Of a stretch of DNA of 64,000 nucleotides, positions 1 to 24,010 are shown in pieces; positions within the stretch are counted from its first letter, which is position 1, and every line of letters begins with the position of its first letter. The stretch is from sequence record OR544956; one strand, 5' to 3'. A model generated the notes under the pieces. That model ran no database searches and was not told the origin of the DNA. It was given only the letters and a program-made list of their open reading frames with translations. The stretch is from Escherichia phage vB_EcoM_EP57. The translations under genes were made by a program, and so were the position numbers.

Positions 1-356
1 TCATACGAACCCAGTCAATATCTCTCCCTTTAAAACAATATAAGGATGGGTATTGATAACCTGGGTAAGGAATACCACGCCAACCGTCATATAATGCTGT
101 GTTAGGATCACTAATATTGGAAAATGGAATGATTCCTGGAGTATAATTCAAACTATCAAGTTTGTAGTCCAGTATTGTACAATCTCCAAGTTTTGCTGTA
201 TAAGGATTTTCAGATGAAACTGTAACCCTGAAATACATTGTGTAATCATCGCCAGCGGCTGAAGAATACAAAGATGGGATATCGTTAACGCAATAAAAGT
301 CGATTGCCCCTGTCAAGCCATTTGCAGGTTCAGAATCCAATGCAATATTGATCTGA
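1..356 (-). CDS. tail fibre protein, distal portion (partial, runs off window start; apparent continuation of 357..1406 in another frame)
   Basis: minus-strand frame open from ~400 to position 1 (>118 codons, Gly/Tyr/Asp/Pro-rich), no start codon with RBS, overlaps end of upstream ORF. Confidence 0.3.
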
Positions 357-1406
357 TCAACAGCAGTCAGGTTTATTGACGAAGGTTTTGCCTCGTTGCC
401 AAGTACTTAATTTGAAATCGGCAGGACTTAAAGCTTTAGTAACCCATGCAGAATTTGTTTTTTCTAACATGGCCCACCATCTCCAACCTGCGGAATCCGT
501 AATAGTGATGTTAAAATCATCTGCGTATGAACGATATGTAATAGATTTTAAATTGGCTGTTTTAGTTGGTGTTAACCAAAACCCAACAGTAAAACCACCA
601 TCTGAATCCATATTAGCAGAAACTATCTGATCACTATTTGTCCCAGCAATACCAGTTGCATATTTATATTGTATCACAGTATTGCTTCCCCAGTCAACAA
701 TAATTCTGGGTTCAGCAATAATATATACACCCCCTCCAGGAGGTTCAGTGCGCATAAAACTGGATAAAGGTATATCCATCTTAGTCATATTAGCTGCACC
801 AAGAGGTAAGCCACAACGATATGTCACTGTGTCTGTTTCACTCTTAGTCTTGCTTAATTCTAACTCTGGACGGAAAAGAACACCTTCCCCTGCATCATCT
901 ACACCTTGAAACTCAATACGCAGTTTTGAATTCTGATCCACTCTGAACCAAACTGCTTGTTGTTCTAGAGTTGTTTGTGCTGCAACATCTTGGCGAATTA
1001 CTGTGTATCCTAACTCGTCACGAGAATATTTAGGTATTGCTGTAGATGGGTATGAGTAATCATACGAGATACCATCTGTAAAAGGAATTATTGCTGTCGT
1101 AGATCTACGGAAGAATTTATCAAACATATCGATGTTTGAGTAGTCTTGACACAGCAATAAAGAAGATTGCCAGCAAAGCCAGTATTTTCTCTCTCCTGTG
1201 ATCTGATACATCAGGTAGTTTGCATCACACCACCACGTTTCAGCATCGGAAGCATTATCTTGATAACCTAACTCTACCGGAACGTTTACAGGACGGTTAT
1301 GCCACATCTCATTACGCTTAAGCAGATATCCACCGTGTTCTACAGGGTTGCATGTAGCGTAGTTGAATTTATAGTCACCGTTCACAGAAGCATTTTTAAG
1401 TTGCAC
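357..1406 (-). CDS. tail fibre / receptor-binding protein, middle segment; frame stays open upstream to ~1622
   Basis: 349-aa ORF; track start is an internal GTG; Trp/Tyr/Gly-rich fibre-like composition; position at distal end of tail module. Confidence 0.35.
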   Translation of the reverse strand: MQLKNASVNGDYKFNYATCNPVEHGGYLLKRNEMWHNRPVNVPVELGYQDNASDAETWWCDANYLMYQITGERKYWLCWQSSLLLCQDYSNIDMFDKFFRRSTTAIIPFTDGISYDYSYPSTAIPKYSRDELGYTVIRQDVAAQTTLEQQAVWFRVDQNSKLRIEFQGVDDAGEGVLFRPELELSKTKSETDTVTYRCGLPLGAANMTKMDIPLSSFMRTEPPGGGVYIIAEPRIIVDWGSNTVIQYKYATGIAGTNSDQIVSANMDSDGGFTVGFWLTPTKTANLKSITYRSYADDFNITITDSAGWRWWAMLEKTNSAWVTKALSPADFKLSTWQRGKTFVNKPDCC

Positions 1407-2400: not shown

Positions 2401-2578
2401 GGCTGGTTACTGTTCCCCGTGCATTCAGACGGTTTCTAGTTACCCCTGCACCACTCAACAACACTTTCAAAGAAGTTTTCTTTGTTATTCCAGCCTGATC
2501 TGTTACAAAGAAATCTGTATCAGACACAGAGGTTGTTTGTGTAAGATCAGAAATTTTGATCGTAGTTAAATCTGCCAT
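2384..2578 (-). CDS. hypothetical tail/baseplate protein
   Basis: 64-aa ORF; ATG overlaps stop of upstream gene (TAATG). Confidence 0.3.
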   Translation of the reverse strand: MADLTTIKISDLTQTTSVSDTDFFVTDQAGITKKTSLKVLLSGAGVTRNRLNARGTVTSLGIRY

Positions 2579-3204
2579 TACTCTTCTACTCCTGTCATAG
2601 CTGTTATACCGAAATTATTGTTTGTAGTTAATGCATCACCTTTTTCGTTAACCATGATTCTTTCCACTGCTGACTCTGTAGACCATTCATTCCACCAAGT
2701 AGAGTAGGTATCACGTGGCAAACCAACAAAGTTGATAAAGCGATAAAGTCTATTCGAATTCTCAACAATACTGTAAGCTTCACAAATGATCGCTGCATTG
2801 TCTTCACCAGCTTCAGGGTAAATAAACTCTTCAGAAGGTTGAGTATTGAATATAGATGTTACTGTATCTGCTCCTACTGTGACCATAACTGTCATTGAGT
2901 AATAACGTTGATCCATGTCATAAGCAGATTTATAACTGTTTATTGTATCTATGTAAACGTTTTTGGCAATCTCTGCTAAAAATATTCTGTCTACAATATC
3001 TTTCTTTCTAGCAACACCAATAATCTCTTGTAAGTAAGGAACACCGAAGTTAGTATTTAAAAACCACTCCCCACGATACGTGTTCAGAGTTATCCCAAGA
3101 GTTTGTGCTGCAATTTCTGTTCTGGTTGTAGTGAGGACCAAATCCCCATCATCCATGATGAGGTCGTTGTTTGGTCCAAGTTTTAAGTCAAAAGGGATTC
3201 CCAT
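2578..3204 (-). CDS. baseplate protein
   Basis: 208-aa ORF in collinear tail module. Confidence 0.35.
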   Translation of the reverse strand: MGIPFDLKLGPNNDLIMDDGDLVLTTTRTEIAAQTLGITLNTYRGEWFLNTNFGVPYLQEIIGVARKKDIVDRIFLAEIAKNVYIDTINSYKSAYDMDQRYYSMTVMVTVGADTVTSIFNTQPSEEFIYPEAGEDNAAIICEAYSIVENSNRLYRFINFVGLPRDTYSTWWNEWSTESAVERIMVNEKGDALTTNNNFGITAMTGVEE

Positions 3205-3205
3205 G

Positions 3206-3940
3206 TTAGGCTCCTGTTGGTTTTAAGGACTCGGCACTTGAGTTACCGCTCTGAATGTTACGAACCGTGTGCGTGTGAGTATGGAATCCGATGCCATTAC
3301 CATCTGTCATCAAACCGTTCTGGTCTATTTTAAGACCATTGATATCTGCCACGCCGCCTTTGAAAGTTAAATTACCACCTTTTAGATCCAAAGTCCCTGT
3401 GCCATCTGTAATAGTAATACCAGAGGTGGTAATATCTATTTTCATCCCTTGACTATTCCATATTGAAATATTACCTGTAGGGTCGAAAGAAGCGTACGTG
3501 TTTTTGTTATTAGAAATAACTACCTTTTCAGAATCTACAGCTTCTGTTGAATCTGTTCCTGTAGCTATTTTGGGAATAAAACAAATAGGGTATAATCCAC
3601 AAGGCTGCATAAAAGTGGATGATGAAGAGGTTTCTCCACTAGTTTGCAGTGCATTAGAAGGATCTCTTTCAGAAAATATAACAGTTCCTAAATCGCCAGC
3701 TTTAATAGGGAATGAGATTCTTCCTGTCCCACCACCATTAACCATAAAAGGAACATCTTCAAAAGTAGGGTAATCTATTTCATCTTCGCTAGATCGTGTG
3801 TTTTTAACAATAGATTCTAAGGTGACAGTCTTAGCACCATAATTAACGCCAGTCACACGGACTGGCAGGGCTGTATGGACTTCTGCTAATTGTTCTGTCA
3901 TTAAGCCACGCATTGCTGTGACAAAATTTAATGCATCCAT
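3206..3940 (-). CDS. baseplate spike-like protein with C-terminal Gly-rich repeats and HTHTHT motif
   Basis: 244 aa; C-terminus GGNLTFKGG...NGIGFHTHTHTV resembles beta-helical spike tips carrying HxH metal-binding motifs. Confidence 0.4.
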   Translation of the reverse strand: MDALNFVTAMRGLMTEQLAEVHTALPVRVTGVNYGAKTVTLESIVKNTRSSEDEIDYPTFEDVPFMVNGGGTGRISFPIKAGDLGTVIFSERDPSNALQTSGETSSSSTFMQPCGLYPICFIPKIATGTDSTEAVDSEKVVISNNKNTYASFDPTGNISIWNSQGMKIDITTSGITITDGTGTLDLKGGNLTFKGGVADINGLKIDQNGLMTDGNGIGFHTHTHTVRNIQSGNSSAESLKPTGA

Positions 3941-6203: not shown

Positions 6204-8048
6204 TTAACCACCAGTGTTAGATTGTCCACTTAGAGTTGAAAGAGATAAACGTTGGAAAATGCTATTTCCGCTATTTTGAATTCTTGCATCAAGAATATTT
6301 CCAAACTCTGAAGAAGGGCTGATCGTAACTTTGATAAGATCACTTGGTATTGCTACCGTATTCTCAACAACAGGTTGATTACGAGCCAAACTTACATTAG
6401 GTGTATATGCCGACTGACGTAAATCTTCCAGAGGATTACCAAATCCAAAAGCACGTGTCCTTGTTTGTTCTCCTCTCCACATACGACCAATATCTTGTGT
6501 ATCAATACCTGTTAAATTGTACAACCAATCTGCTACAGGATTGCTGTCTCCACTTTGCGTTGCCTCGTATGCTTTTTGTGCTAAAGATTTATTAGGATCT
6601 GTGTCTTTAACGTTATCCAACCAAGAATCATCTTTAGGTAAGGCTTTCACAAAACCCTCTAAGAAGTGGTTCTGCATACCTTGACCTACAAGCTGAACTG
6701 TTGCAGCAAAACGAGTAAACTCTTTAGAAGCATCTATTTGTTCTTGAGTTAATGTTGCACCTGTTCTTTGAAGCATTTTCAATACTTCATTATACCCTTC
6801 GCCGTTTTTACTAAACATACGTTGGTAGTGCATAAGGTCATCACCAAGGTTTTCAAGAAGTCGCCCGATTTGAGCAGAGTTCATACCTCGACGCTCACCT
6901 TCATTAACAGTAGCCTGAATAAAAGCTAAAGGATCGTTCTGTAAAGGTTTAAGCTGTTCTGGATTCCATCCAAACAAGTTCATAATGTCATTTATGCCAT
7001 TATCACCGCCTTTCCACTTCCCTTCTTTCTCATTCCATTTTGAGGCTAAAACTGTATTACCAAGACGTTCACGAACGTCTTTAATATTATCTATTGACTT
7101 AATAATATTTGCAGAGTCTACACCGTTCTGTTCACCCCAAGCTGTCATCGCTAAAATAGAGTTGGCGTTTGTCTGAACGTTTTCAGCGCCACGACTTACA
7201 AGTTTAATTCTTTCGTTAGTATTCATCAACGTGTTACCAACTACAGAACCACCTGCAAACAGCCCAGCACCTATTAAAGAGGATGCAATCATGCGTGGAT
7301 TAAGACCTGCTGCACCTTCTTTTAATTGTCCATATCGACGATCACGATCACGTTTTTGTTGAGCTAATTCACGCTTACGGTTGCGTTCTATATCTCTAAG
7401 TTCACGATTTCGCATACGTATACGCATTTTAGCTTCTGCTTCTAGCTCTCTACGAATACGGCGACGACCGCGAACCTCGTCTTCTATTTCAGCATTCTTT
7501 TCACGATGAGATCTGCGTAAGGCATCTAACTGGTGAGCAAGAGCTTGGTTCATACGTTGAAGAGTTATTTCACCCTTTTTGTATTGCTCTACAGCTTTAC
7601 CCATAACGTCCCTAGCTTCTTGCATAGCCCCAGGACTGGCTTTACTAAATGCTCTTGCTCTGTAGTTAAAGTTCTGCAAACGAAGATTACCTAAATCTTC
7701 CCTACGTGCTGCTGCTTTAGCTTCGCGTTCAGCAGCTTTACGAGCTTTTTCTTCTTCTCTTCCTTGCGGGGTTTTAGGAGTTCTAGGTCTACCAGATCCG
7801 CCTACAGGAGCACCCGCTCCAGCGGGAGTAGGTGCTCGCATAGGTTTTTGACTTTGAGTTTGAGCTTTCTTAAGTTCACGCTCAATCTCTTTCATTTGTT
7901 GTCTAAACTTGGTCATGTTCATAGTGGGTTGCATTTTATTTGCAAACTTCTGAACACTCAACACGGCATCTTTTGCTTCCTTGAGACTGTTCTTGTCCAC
8001 CTTAAACGTAACCACGTTACTAATTTTGGAGGCGTTAATTTCTAACAA
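6204..8048 (-). CDS. tail tape measure protein
   Basis: 614 aa, long charged coiled-coil stretch (REEEKARKAAEREAKAAARRE...), directly downstream of the frameshifting chaperone pair. Confidence 0.5.
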   Translation of the reverse strand: MLEINASKISNVVTFKVDKNSLKEAKDAVLSVQKFANKMQPTMNMTKFRQQMKEIERELKKAQTQSQKPMRAPTPAGAGAPVGGSGRPRTPKTPQGREEEKARKAAEREAKAAARREDLGNLRLQNFNYRARAFSKASPGAMQEARDVMGKAVEQYKKGEITLQRMNQALAHQLDALRRSHREKNAEIEDEVRGRRRIRRELEAEAKMRIRMRNRELRDIERNRKRELAQQKRDRDRRYGQLKEGAAGLNPRMIASSLIGAGLFAGGSVVGNTLMNTNERIKLVSRGAENVQTNANSILAMTAWGEQNGVDSANIIKSIDNIKDVRERLGNTVLASKWNEKEGKWKGGDNGINDIMNLFGWNPEQLKPLQNDPLAFIQATVNEGERRGMNSAQIGRLLENLGDDLMHYQRMFSKNGEGYNEVLKMLQRTGATLTQEQIDASKEFTRFAATVQLVGQGMQNHFLEGFVKALPKDDSWLDNVKDTDPNKSLAQKAYEATQSGDSNPVADWLYNLTGIDTQDIGRMWRGEQTRTRAFGFGNPLEDLRQSAYTPNVSLARNQPVVENTVAIPSDLIKVTISPSSEFGNILDARIQNSGNSIFQRLSLSTLSGQSNTGG

Positions 8049-21413: not shown

Positions 21414-21437
21414 GCAAAAAGCCTCCAATAAGGAGGC
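21414..21437 (-). terminator. rho-independent terminator closing the tRNA operon
   Basis: minus strand GCCTCC-TTATT-GGAGGC followed by TTTTT. Confidence 0.6.
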
Positions 21438-21553
21438 TAATAAATACTGTTAAGTTGAAATGCTTTATTATAATTGTGCGTTAAGGAGTCGCACCCCTCC
21501 ATCTTAGAAGGAACCAGGCAAGGTCTTCAAAGATACCGCTGGCAAGCGATATT

Positions 21554-22219: not shown

Positions 22220-22249
22220 ACTATACTACATTTTACTATTGGTTGTCAA
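22220..22249 (-). promoter_or_regulatory. promoter with AACTATTGACAA element, start site just upstream of the tRNA at 22208
   Basis: minus strand TTGACA - 18 nt - TATAGT. Confidence 0.45.
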
Positions 22250-22438: not shown

Positions 22439-22527
22439 ATCAACACAATACTAAGAACACTGTCTTTCGAACAGACCTTGTGCACAGGATACGACGATCA
22501 ATCACAGTGCTCTTAATGTTGTGTTGG
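22439..22527 (-). ncRNA. tRNA-like degenerate element (GTTCGAA loop, 8-bp terminal pairing), not a canonical tRNA
   Basis: ends CAACACAA/TTGTGTTG pair; internal hairpin with TTCGAA loop; no cloverleaf could be completed. Confidence 0.2.
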
Positions 22528-22781: not shown

Positions 22782-22869
22782 TGGTGGTGAGTGATGGAGT
22801 TGAACCACCCGAATCGCAATGATAACAGATTTACAGTCTGCCCCGCTACCCCTACGGAATTAACTCACC
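22782..22869 (-). tRNA. tRNA-Tyr (anticodon GTA), class II, CCA encoded
   Basis: acceptor GGTGAGT/ACTCACC; anticodon arm GCAGA-CTGTAAA-TCTGT; T arm GGTGG-TTCAACT-CCATC. Confidence 0.6.
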
Positions 22870-23038: not shown

Positions 23039-23129
23039 TGGCGGAAGGAGGGAGAGTCGAACTCCCAAGGCTCTTTCAAGCTCGGCGGTTTTCAAGACCG
23101 TTTTCGTCGCCACGTCGATTTGCCCTTCC
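23039..23129 (-). tRNA. tRNA-Ser (anticodon TGA), class II, CCA encoded
   Basis: acceptor GGAAGGG/TCCTTCC; anticodon loop CTTGAAA; long variable arm; T arm GGGAG-TTCGACT-CTCCC. Confidence 0.5.
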
Positions 23130-23138
23130 ATACTTATA

Positions 23139-23167
23139 ATCTAACATAAAATAATGTTTGTTGTCAA
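23139..23167 (-). promoter_or_regulatory. promoter with AACTATTGACAA element, start site at the tRNA-Ser 5' end
   Basis: minus strand TTGACA - 17 nt - TTAGAT. Confidence 0.4.
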
Positions 23168-23363
23168 TAGTTTTTTAAAACATTTTACCATGAATGGTGA
23201 CTCCACCAACCCCCGTTCTCCACGAACGGTGCTCTTCGAGCATTTATGTCTTCTAATATAACCGTGGCCTTTGTTTATAATGTCTGACATACTTGCCTCA
23301 TTCTCTGCCACCATGATCAGTAGTGGGTTCAAATTACTTGAGCTAATTCATGTTAAAATGTTC

Positions 23364-23440: not shown

Positions 23441-23515
23441 TGGTGGCCCTGGCTGGTTTCGATCCAGCTACCTATCGGTTATGAGCCGACAGCTCTCCCA
23501 TTGAGCTACAGGGCC
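23441..23515 (-). tRNA. tRNA-Met (anticodon CAT; could be fMet or Ile2), CCA encoded
   Basis: acceptor GGCCCTG/CAGGGCC; D arm GCTC-AATGGGA-GAGC; anticodon arm GTCGG-CTCATAA-CCGAT. Confidence 0.6.
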
Positions 23516-23520
23516 ATAAA

Positions 23521-23712
23521 TGTGGTAACAGAGACGCTGACGATTGTAGAGAACCGCTACATTCTCTAAGACCAAGCCCAACTTTCAGCGTAAAAGTTCT
23601 TGAGCCGAGACTGTTCCTTTTCCTCTTTGGTAGCTAACCTCTGAAGAAGTAGTCTCTAACACTACCGCAGTGCAAGCCCCTCTTAACAAAAGTCAACGAC
23701 ACTGTTACCACA
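23521..23712 (-). ncRNA. candidate structured stable RNA (~190 nt) at the 5' end of the tRNA transcript
   Basis: perfect 11-bp terminal helix (5' UGUGGUAACAG / 3' CUGUUACCACA), internal hairpins, no long ORF, begins at the predicted start site of the 23725..23754 promoter. Confidence 0.4.
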
Positions 23713-23724
23713 CTTGATGAACGT

Positions 23725-23754
23725 ATCCTAACATATGAAGGATACGTTTGTCAA
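23725..23754 (-). promoter_or_regulatory. promoter with AACTATTGACAA element heading the tRNA operon
   Basis: minus strand TTGACA - 18 nt - TAGGAT; 6-bp inverted repeat GTATCC/GGATAC overlaps the spacer. Confidence 0.4.
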
Positions 23755-23761
23755 TAGTTAT

Positions 23762-24010
23762 TTAAGCATATTCTGCTACTTCTTCACTATCTTTCTTTTC
23801 CAGAAGAGCAACAACCAAAGCTTCTGCGTTAAAAGTATTAATTTCAAGATCCATCTCTCGCATCAGAGCCAAGAAATCAATAACTTTAACATCTTTAGTG
23901 ATTACAATAGAAGTTGTACCATTGTTTTCAGATGTGTATTTTTCTGGATGGAAAAGAAAAACTGCATTGCCGTTACCATCTTCAAACACGTGTTTTTCTA
24001 ATAGAGACAT
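23762..24010 (-). CDS. hypothetical small protein
   Basis: 82-aa ORF, first minus-strand gene left of the divergent region. Confidence 0.35.
   Translation of the reverse strand: MSLLEKHVFEDGNGNAVFLFHPEKYTSENNGTTSIVITKDVKVIDFLALMREMDLEINTFNAEALVVALLEKKDSEEVAEYA

Follow-up and report, generated by a model that had tools for sequence, protein, structure and literature searches.

For 50 years it has been known that the tRNA clusters of phages can encode extra small stable RNAs, such as species 1 and 2 of phage T4. To our knowledge, no function has ever been assigned to these two RNAs. Complex multi-helix RNAs of the GOLLD and ROOL classes are often found near tRNA genes in phages and prophages, and their function is also unknown. 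A long helix that bounds a stable RNA is familiar from rRNA processing, in which flanking sequences pair to form a stalk of about two helical turns that defines the unit excised by RNase III. In E. coli, the enzymes that normally mature tRNA operons are RNase E, RNase P, and exonucleases, and RNase III is not among them. The function of the T4 RNAs was still described as unknown in 2022 (PMC9697503). Their genes, rnaC (species 1, 139 nt) and rnaD (species 2, 119 nt), lie in the tRNA cluster, on the tRNA strand and abutting a tRNA, and the folding z score of rnaC is -4.6. Y RNAs (YrlA, Rfam RF02553) are described as having a long conserved stem formed by the 5' and 3' ends and an association with tRNA-like sequences, and as being sometimes phage-encoded (PMC4201824).

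Here, we analyze an element in a 64,000-nt stretch of Phapecoctavirus DNA (phAPEC8 group, Stephanstirmvirinae), which is referred to below as the window. The element is almost certainly a conserved structured RNA. We consider it reasonably probable that the whole is best explained as a noncoding RNA (ncRNA) of about 200 nt that is released from the transcript of a tRNA operon, is stable, acts in trans, and belongs to a family not described before. In the literature on phapecoctaviruses, we found no study of the transcriptome or of ncRNAs.

Location of the element in the tRNA operon

The preliminary description of this region reported a structured RNA with an 11-bp terminal helix at 23521-23712, and these coordinates are exact: TGTGGTAACAG occurs at 23521-23531 on the plus strand and at 23702-23712 on the minus strand. 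All tRNA genes (10 predicted by ARAGORN and one more, missed by ARAGORN, by Rfam) lie on the minus strand, from 23515 to 21554. Therefore, the RNA runs from 23712 to 23521 in minus-strand orientation, with UGUGGUAACAG as its first and CUGUUACCACA as its last bases. The 400 bases around the element have 100% identity to Escherichia phages PNJ1809-36, nieznany, and tuntematon.

The promoter and the first tRNA were correctly placed, directly upstream and directly downstream of the element, respectively (Table 1). The -35 hexamer of the promoter is invariant, and the -10 hexamer is either TAGGAT or TAAGAT, across lineages with only about 80% identity. Transcription is predicted from the promoter sequence to start near A23718. 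The structured RNA occupies the interval between promoter and tRNA-Met with almost no spare bases, and covariance model R1 scores 238.9 bits on the element of the window.

Table 1. Coordinates of the element, its parts, and other features mentioned in the text (positions in the window unless another record is named)
Feature	Positions	Strand	Details
Structured ncRNA	23516..23720	(-)	about 203 nt (about 23718-23516), running from the predicted transcription start up to tRNA-Met; matched over its full length by covariance models R1 and R2
5' stalk strand	23693..23715	(-)	P1 23715-23700, P1b 23698-23693; pairs with 23518-23540
3' stalk strand	23518..23540	(-)	P1b 23540-23535, P1 23533-23518; stops 2 nt before tRNA-Met
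Inner domain closed by P2a	23568..23680	(-)	P2a 23680-23676 with 23572-23568; P2 23673-23659; three-tiered P3 arm 23656-23607, apical hairpin GGU-UAGCU-ACC at 23639-23629; two-tiered P4 arm 23606-23575
P5 hairpin	23548..23567	(-)	AGAGAAU / GUUCUCU; loop with conserved GUAGC
Sigma-70-type promoter of tRNA operon	23725..23754	(-)	consensus scan; -35 TTGACA 23754-23749, 18-nt spacer, TG-extended -10 TAGGAT 23730-23725
10-bp hairpin over promoter spacer and -10	23714..23754	(-)	inverted repeat I2
tRNA-Met (CAU), first tRNA of operon	23441..23515	(-)	ARAGORN and Rfam
Terminator-like hairpin and T-run, likely end of tRNA operon	21420..21438	(-)	weak Rfam matches of sRNA-terminator type coincide
Promoter-like site inside tRNA operon	23138..23167	(-)	TTGACA-18-TAGATT with TG
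Promoter-like site inside tRNA operon	22220..22249	(-)	TTGACA-18-TATAGT, 11/12 consensus
tRNA-like gene missed by ARAGORN	22785..22869	(-)	
tRNA-like gene missed by ARAGORN	23043..23129	(-)	
Second long-stalk RNA candidate	23176..23363	(-)	188 nt; starts directly after CCA of tRNA-Arg
Hairpin of about 80 nt	22443..22524	(-)	stem of about 20 bp; directly after tRNA-Thr, in a 316-nt inter-tRNA gap
Full-length R1 match, Citrobacter phage Tr1 (L005)	3564..3764		42.5 bits, E ~1e-10
Second stalk-closed RNA, Tr1 (L005)	3018..3191		about 170 nt; also delimited as 3022-3188; about 12 nt after tRNA-Leu
'Hypothetical protein' CDS across the RNA, WPEC1 (L011)	337..441		
'Hypothetical protein' CDS across the RNA, PsgM04F (L003)	2538..2642		
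'Hypothetical protein' CDS across the RNA, Tr1 (L005)	3527..3775		
Terminal helix, Salmonella phage SalP219 (L031)	7585..7781		
Terminal helix, Cronobacter phage EspYZU12 (L033)	2802..2998		

Several other features of the operon were recorded. The hairpin that overlaps the promoter lies directly 3' of the stop codon of the upstream 82-codon gene, and at two of its pairs both bases are exchanged in the phiWec lineage with pairing retained (alignment A1). It is not a classical terminator because no T-run follows it. Two promoter-like sites are present inside the tRNA operon, of which the one at 23138-23167 is kept in divergent lineages (alignment A4). Of the two tRNA-like genes that ARAGORN missed, one is a tRNA-Tyr (Rfam, 39 bits) and one a class-II tRNA of the Ser(UGA) type. 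The latter has its best Rfam match to tRNA-Sec, which at 37.4 bits does not reach the gathering score; the corresponding gene carries a tRNA-Ser annotation in PsgM04F, and in the contig L006 from IMG/VR ARAGORN calls it tRNA-Ser(UGA). The neighbouring small proteins have no Pfam domain and match only PHROGs of 'unknown function'. A boxA-like string, CTCTTAACAA, was dismissed because it lies on the antisense strand.

Fold and conservation within Phapecoctavirus

The fold was derived from RNAalifold together with our own reading of the alignment. The 11-bp closing helix of the preliminary description is present and perfect, although its length was understated: the terminal stalk consists of 16 consecutive pairs including two G·U (P1) and, past a 1x1 mismatch, six more pairs (P1b). 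The internal hairpins that had been noted resolve into a multi-branched fold made of P2a, P2, P3, P4, and P5. The bases of the GUAGC loop of P5, of GCUAC in P3, and of CGCU in P4, which are candidates for loop-loop pairing, show no variation within the genus. An 11-nt perfect complement also exists between the 5' strand of P3 (23642-23652) and the last codons of the upstream 82-aa gene (23776-23786); it is probably due to chance because it is not kept in the phiWec lineage.

By chance alone, about three perfect inverted repeats of 11 bp within 200 nt would be expected in the window (64000 x 200 / 4^11), and hence the repeat by itself is weak evidence. The element as a whole is well beyond chance, as judged from its folding energy and from compensatory substitutions in relatives. 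The minimum free energy (MFE) of the minus strand is -72.3 kcal/mol as compared to -53.0 ± 4.2 kcal/mol for dinucleotide shuffles (z = -4.59; 0/200 as good), and the plus strand folds with z = -2.80. Among the 69 modelled pairs, 9-13 are G·U; in a transcript of the opposite strand, or in a cruciform of DNA, these would be A·C mismatches. The strand asymmetry of folding and the G·U pairs thus identify the signal as that of an RNA on the tRNA strand.

By blastn, the element was found in only 70 of 50,697 phage records. The match is >95% identical to the window in 64 of these records and about 80% identical in the other six (phiWec179-type phages and PsgM04F). A third sublineage is represented by a single IMG/VR contig, and two metagenome contigs repeat known sublineages. 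The motif and protein-anchored searches had few returns: an exact/degenerate motif search of IMG/VR returned only one phapecoctavirus-like contig, the same kind of search of JGI metagenomes returned two contigs, both of known lineages, and IMG/VR anchored on the upstream 82-aa protein and the large terminase returned only one phapecoctavirus and several element-free Justusliebigvirus contigs. The element was found in 0 of 5,426 complete E. coli genomes and in none of the species-representative bacterial genomes.

Covarying pairs across related phages had been proposed as a check on the structure, and they are present. In an alignment of 12 distinct sequences from three sublineages (A3), 98.6% of the cells hold a standard pair in the modelled fold versus 40-46% in slid controls, in which the 3' partners were shifted by 1-3 columns. 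Twelve pairs are doubly compensated and still paired, versus 0-2 in the slid controls, a comparison of shallow depth that draws on three close sublineages, to which one distant sequence (that of Citrobacter phage Tr1, see below) can be added. Compensatory changes are present in P2a, P2, P3, and P4, and five of the seven pairs of P5 are doubly compensated within Phapecoctavirus (six of seven with Tr1 added). An alternative pairing at the junction fits the genus alignment equally well. The stalk behaves differently from the inner helices: sublineages A and B differ at 1 of its 44 positions as compared to 26 of the 94 positions of the inner helices (Fisher p = 1.8e-4). A near-invariant stalk indicates that, within the genus, there is an extra constraint on the stalk sequence itself.

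Some of these observations could be read as signs of a DNA-level element, namely, a mobile element of the miniature inverted-repeat type, a cruciform, an origin, or a palindrome bound by a protein. Such a reading would account for perfect 11-bp terminal inverted repeats about 170 bp apart and for the near-invariance of the stalk sequence. However, the G·U pairs and the folding asymmetry between the strands point to RNA, and the covariation of the inner helices is not required of a terminal-repeat element. In addition, just one copy is present in the window, and one in the 72 kb analyzed of a genome with an identical element, copies are missing from the bacterial genomes mentioned above, and the flanks ATCAAG and ATTTAT are not direct repeats, i.e. 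there is no target-site duplication. We regard a DNA-level element as extremely improbable.

It is hardly probable either that the region is a non-functional relic left by decayed tRNA genes, or a spacer whose folding is accidental. Pseudo-tRNAs occur in phage tRNA clusters, and in our reading UCGGCUCAAGAAC resembles the tRNA-Met anticodon arm UCGGCUCAUAAC while GUAGC and UAGCU resemble a D-arm. These resemblances are not collinear with a tRNA, however, and the element does not match the tRNA model. Every helix is compensated, across lineages diverged by about 20% and in Tr1, and compensatory evolution in every helix implies purifying selection on the fold.

The statement that the region contains no ORF holds in substance. 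There is a 34-codon frame with a TTG start, which is open in the three sublineages, and a CDS for a 'hypothetical protein' has been annotated across the RNA in WPEC1 and PsgM04F, as well as in Tr1 (Table 1). A small protein made from the TTG frame nevertheless has next to no probability: the frame lacks an ATG, 1-nt indels break it in REC, ukendt, and UP17, and it is poorly kept as protein, about 13 of the 34 residues differing between lineages through the same substitutions that keep the base pairs. The CDSs annotated across the RNA are most likely annotation artefacts. In several GenBank records, an ncRNA annotation should replace these spurious small CDSs.

A distant homologue in Citrobacter phage Tr1 and phages that lack the element

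In Citrobacter phage Tr1, an unclassified phage of the same subfamily as the window phage, covariance model R1 is matched over its full length. The Tr1 stalk has a wholly different sequence, CCAACUUAUAAUGAAG / CUUCCUUAUAACUUGG, of which 14 of 16 positions are paired. The MFE structure of the Tr1 RNA, computed independently of the model, recovers the stalk, P2a, P2, and P5; the presence of P2a in it favours the P2a model of the junction. Inclusion of Tr1 raises the number of doubly compensated pairs to 33 of 69, with 10 of the 22 stalk pairs among them; these counts are biased towards the structure since the Tr1 row was aligned by the model. Thus, the terminal helix, the loss of which in relatives had been named as grounds for rejecting the structure, is near-invariant within Phapecoctavirus and is kept in Tr1. 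Unpaired bases are also common to the two genera, among them GUUAARA at the junction and AAG in the internal loop of P4. As a check of specificity, model R2, which includes Tr1, was run on 308 kb of unrelated contigs and gave no match at E ≤ 1. Blastn with the Tr1 element matched only Tr1 itself, and of 43 chance matches to a Tr1-derived 17-mer, none was confirmed by the model.

In Tr1, four tRNAs precede the RNA and an ORF comes after it, and it lies about 730 nt downstream of the tRNA that opens the cluster. Its start coincides with the encoded CCA of the upstream tRNA (Rfam tRNA, 3497-3567), and downstream of the RNA there is a ribosome-binding site followed by the ORF. What is common to both genera is, therefore, the RNA module and its contact with a tRNA processing site, and not the proximity to a promoter or a downstream tRNA. 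A location within the cluster, with a tRNA before and an ORF after the RNA, favours an autonomous module over a simple promoter-proximal leader. It also favours the view that an autonomous RNA has one of its ends set by tRNA maturation.

The sister genus Justusliebigvirus lacks the element: searches with the model in phi92 and three IMG/VR contigs, over stretches of at most 18 kb at the tRNA region, gave no match. These phages encode a homologue of the upstream 82-aa protein, and the tRNAs follow directly after it, with no element at the syntenic site. Its absence there implies that the RNA is dispensable for phages of this type. Short model matches in selz, phi92, and T4 are plain hairpins and were rejected.

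Weak full-length matches (16-20 bits) in the Seunavirus phages SalP219 and EspYZU12, with a 15/16-bp terminal helix before the first tRNA, were rejected as well. We do not count these phages as members of the family because the region consists of two CDSs with changes at the third codon position, the inner helices mismatch, and a broader model brings no gain. The 15/16-bp complementarity there is between the end of an 81-codon gene and the end of the next, 39-codon gene, upstream of the tRNA cluster, and may be a separate mRNA structure.

The strongest competing account is that of a purely cis-acting leader of the tRNA operon, in which the freed RNA would have no later function. Possible roles of such a leader are a 5' stabilizer, an RNase III stalk like that at rRNAs, or antitermination (anti-Rho) over about 2.3 kb of untranslated RNA. 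The position of the element, which follows the promoter directly and stops 2 nt short of the first tRNA, agrees with it. RNase III substrates span about two helical turns, and the 22-bp stalk is of this size. The preferential conservation of the stalk within the genus fits recognition by a processing factor, and further long-stalk structures exist between the tRNAs of the same operon. On the other hand, a stabilizer or an RNase III site requires only a hairpin, and not five more covarying helices and invariant junction nucleotides. The location of the Tr1 homologue means that a role tied to the promoter or to the first tRNA is not conserved, and phi92-type phages have a similar tRNA operon without the element. 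On balance, a purely cis-acting leader appears possible but unlikely.

A riboswitch-like sensor of a metabolite, a tRNA, or a protein, which would control the downstream tRNAs in Phapecoctavirus or the ORF in Tr1, was also considered. The architecture is reminiscent of a large aptamer in that the ends form P1, a multi-way junction contains the conserved unpaired GUUAARA, and the stems covary; in both genera the RNA lies directly upstream of an expressed unit. Known riboswitches were ruled out, as no aptamer class is matched even at E ≤ 10. Moreover, no expression platform is seen in the window, in which P1 is followed by AUUUAU and then the tRNA, with neither a terminator-like site nor a ribosome-binding site, and P1 is very long and stable, which is atypical of a switching helix. 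We know of no precedent for a riboswitch ahead of tRNA genes, and consider this explanation very unlikely.

Proposed release of the RNA and comparison with known systems

A released, stable RNA remains the explanation that we prefer, and its formation may be envisaged as follows. Host RNA polymerase would start at the sigma-70-type promoter, about 4-6 nt before the stalk. The first 200 nt or so of the transcript would then fold, the 22-bp stalk P1/P1b closing a junction that carries the inner domain and P5. RNase P cleavage at the 5' ends of tRNAs is part of general tRNA maturation. Since tRNA-Met begins 2 nt after the stalk, an RNase P cut at its 5' end would free the upstream RNA as a discrete molecule, and release is probably by this enzyme. 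The freed RNA would carry a 2-nt 3' overhang on the stalk and a triphosphate at the 5' end, 3-5 nt from the stalk. With both ends clamped in a long helix, it would be expected to resist 5'-end-dependent RNase E and 3' exonucleases. Expression, processing, and stability are thus predicted from the modelled fold and the gene order.

The freed RNA would act autonomously, probably by binding a protein, as a functional counterpart of the T4 small stable RNAs; recognition is probably through the conserved stalk and junction. The apical loop of P3 has a short self-complementary stretch in both genera, UAGCUA in Phapecoctavirus and GAUC/UGAUCA in Tr1, with loop sequences that differ. Speculatively, the RNA may self-associate through this loop. 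A more far-reaching proposal is that the RNA is the founding member of a class of trans-acting phage 'tRNA-operon companion' RNAs, which might serve as decoys or scaffolds for a tRNA-handling factor of host or phage origin. Such a factor could be a processing RNase or a tRNA-targeting defence nuclease. We hold this proposal to be doubtful and advance it as a tentative one.

Other long-stalk structures were observed in the same tRNA clusters. The candidate at 23176-23363 has a closing helix of 17-18 bp (GAACAUUUUAACAUGAAU / AUUCAUGGUAAAAUGUUU), a folding z score of -3.9, and, in the phiWec lineage, one pair compensated from C-G to U-A. It is not recognizably related to the main RNA because neither R1 nor R2 detects it. 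A simpler hairpin follows tRNA-Thr (Table 1). In Tr1, a second stalk-closed RNA is present that has a 15-bp terminal helix plus six pairs and z = -5.2, and scores just 10 bits with R1. There are hints here that long-stalk companion RNAs are general in phage tRNA clusters and have been overlooked.

The function of the RNA is open to experiment for several reasons. Its hosts are E. coli phages of a genus with many sequenced isolates (70 records with the element), its structure is backed by covariation, its ends are defined by the promoter on one side and the tRNA on the other, and the phi92-type phages are natural 'knock-out' relatives.

With regard to known RNA classes, the earlier statement that no class could be named was borne out. 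At the gathering score, tRNA is the sole Rfam 15 family in the whole window, and at E ≤ 10 only the edge of tRNA-Met and a meaningless lncRNA match (E = 7) were found in 23480-23780. Two further systems were rejected on comparison. 6S RNA is ruled out, as the fold here is multi-branched with three branch points in contrast to the rod-like helix of 6S RNA, and there is no Rfam match. Inverted repeats are present as in a retron msr-msd, but the neighbours are tRNAs and small ORFs, and no reverse transcriptase is annotated.

Among the systems with a partial likeness, YrlA is similar in that the 5' and 3' ends form a long stem of conserved sequence. YrlA contains a tRNA-like module, whereas the Phapecoctavirus RNA has no T- or D-arm module. 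YrlA gave no match in the element (Rfam, E ≤ 10); a weak YrlA match lies elsewhere in the operon, over tRNA-Ile and tRNA-Pro (22.8 bits versus a gathering score of 69). In phage tuntematon, the element of which is identical to that of the window, the annotation of the 72 kb beyond the first 78 kb contains no Ro60/Rsr gene. GOLLD and ROOL, which have no Rfam match on the element, are three to four times longer than the Phapecoctavirus RNA, in which the hint of oligomerization consists solely of short self-complementary loop sequences. As at rRNA processing stalks, a helix of about two turns bounds a structured unit in a stable-RNA transcript, which is here a feature of the predicted fold.

The closest likeness is to T4 rnaC and rnaD. 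In the window and in Tr1, as in T4, an ncRNA is present in a phage tRNA cluster, on the tRNA strand and abutting a tRNA. The resemblance to T4 that had been suggested is thus one of genomic context and does not extend to homology: with filters off, R1 gave no match over rnaC or rnaD in the T4 tRNA region. rnaC has a tRNA-like T-arm, GGGUUCGAAUCCC, which the Phapecoctavirus RNA lacks. The T4 genes are at the tail of their cluster, in contrast to the position of the Phapecoctavirus RNA at the head, and the latter RNA is larger and closed by a 22-bp stalk. The Phapecoctavirus RNA therefore constitutes a second, unrelated case beside the T4 RNAs, and one with better comparative support.
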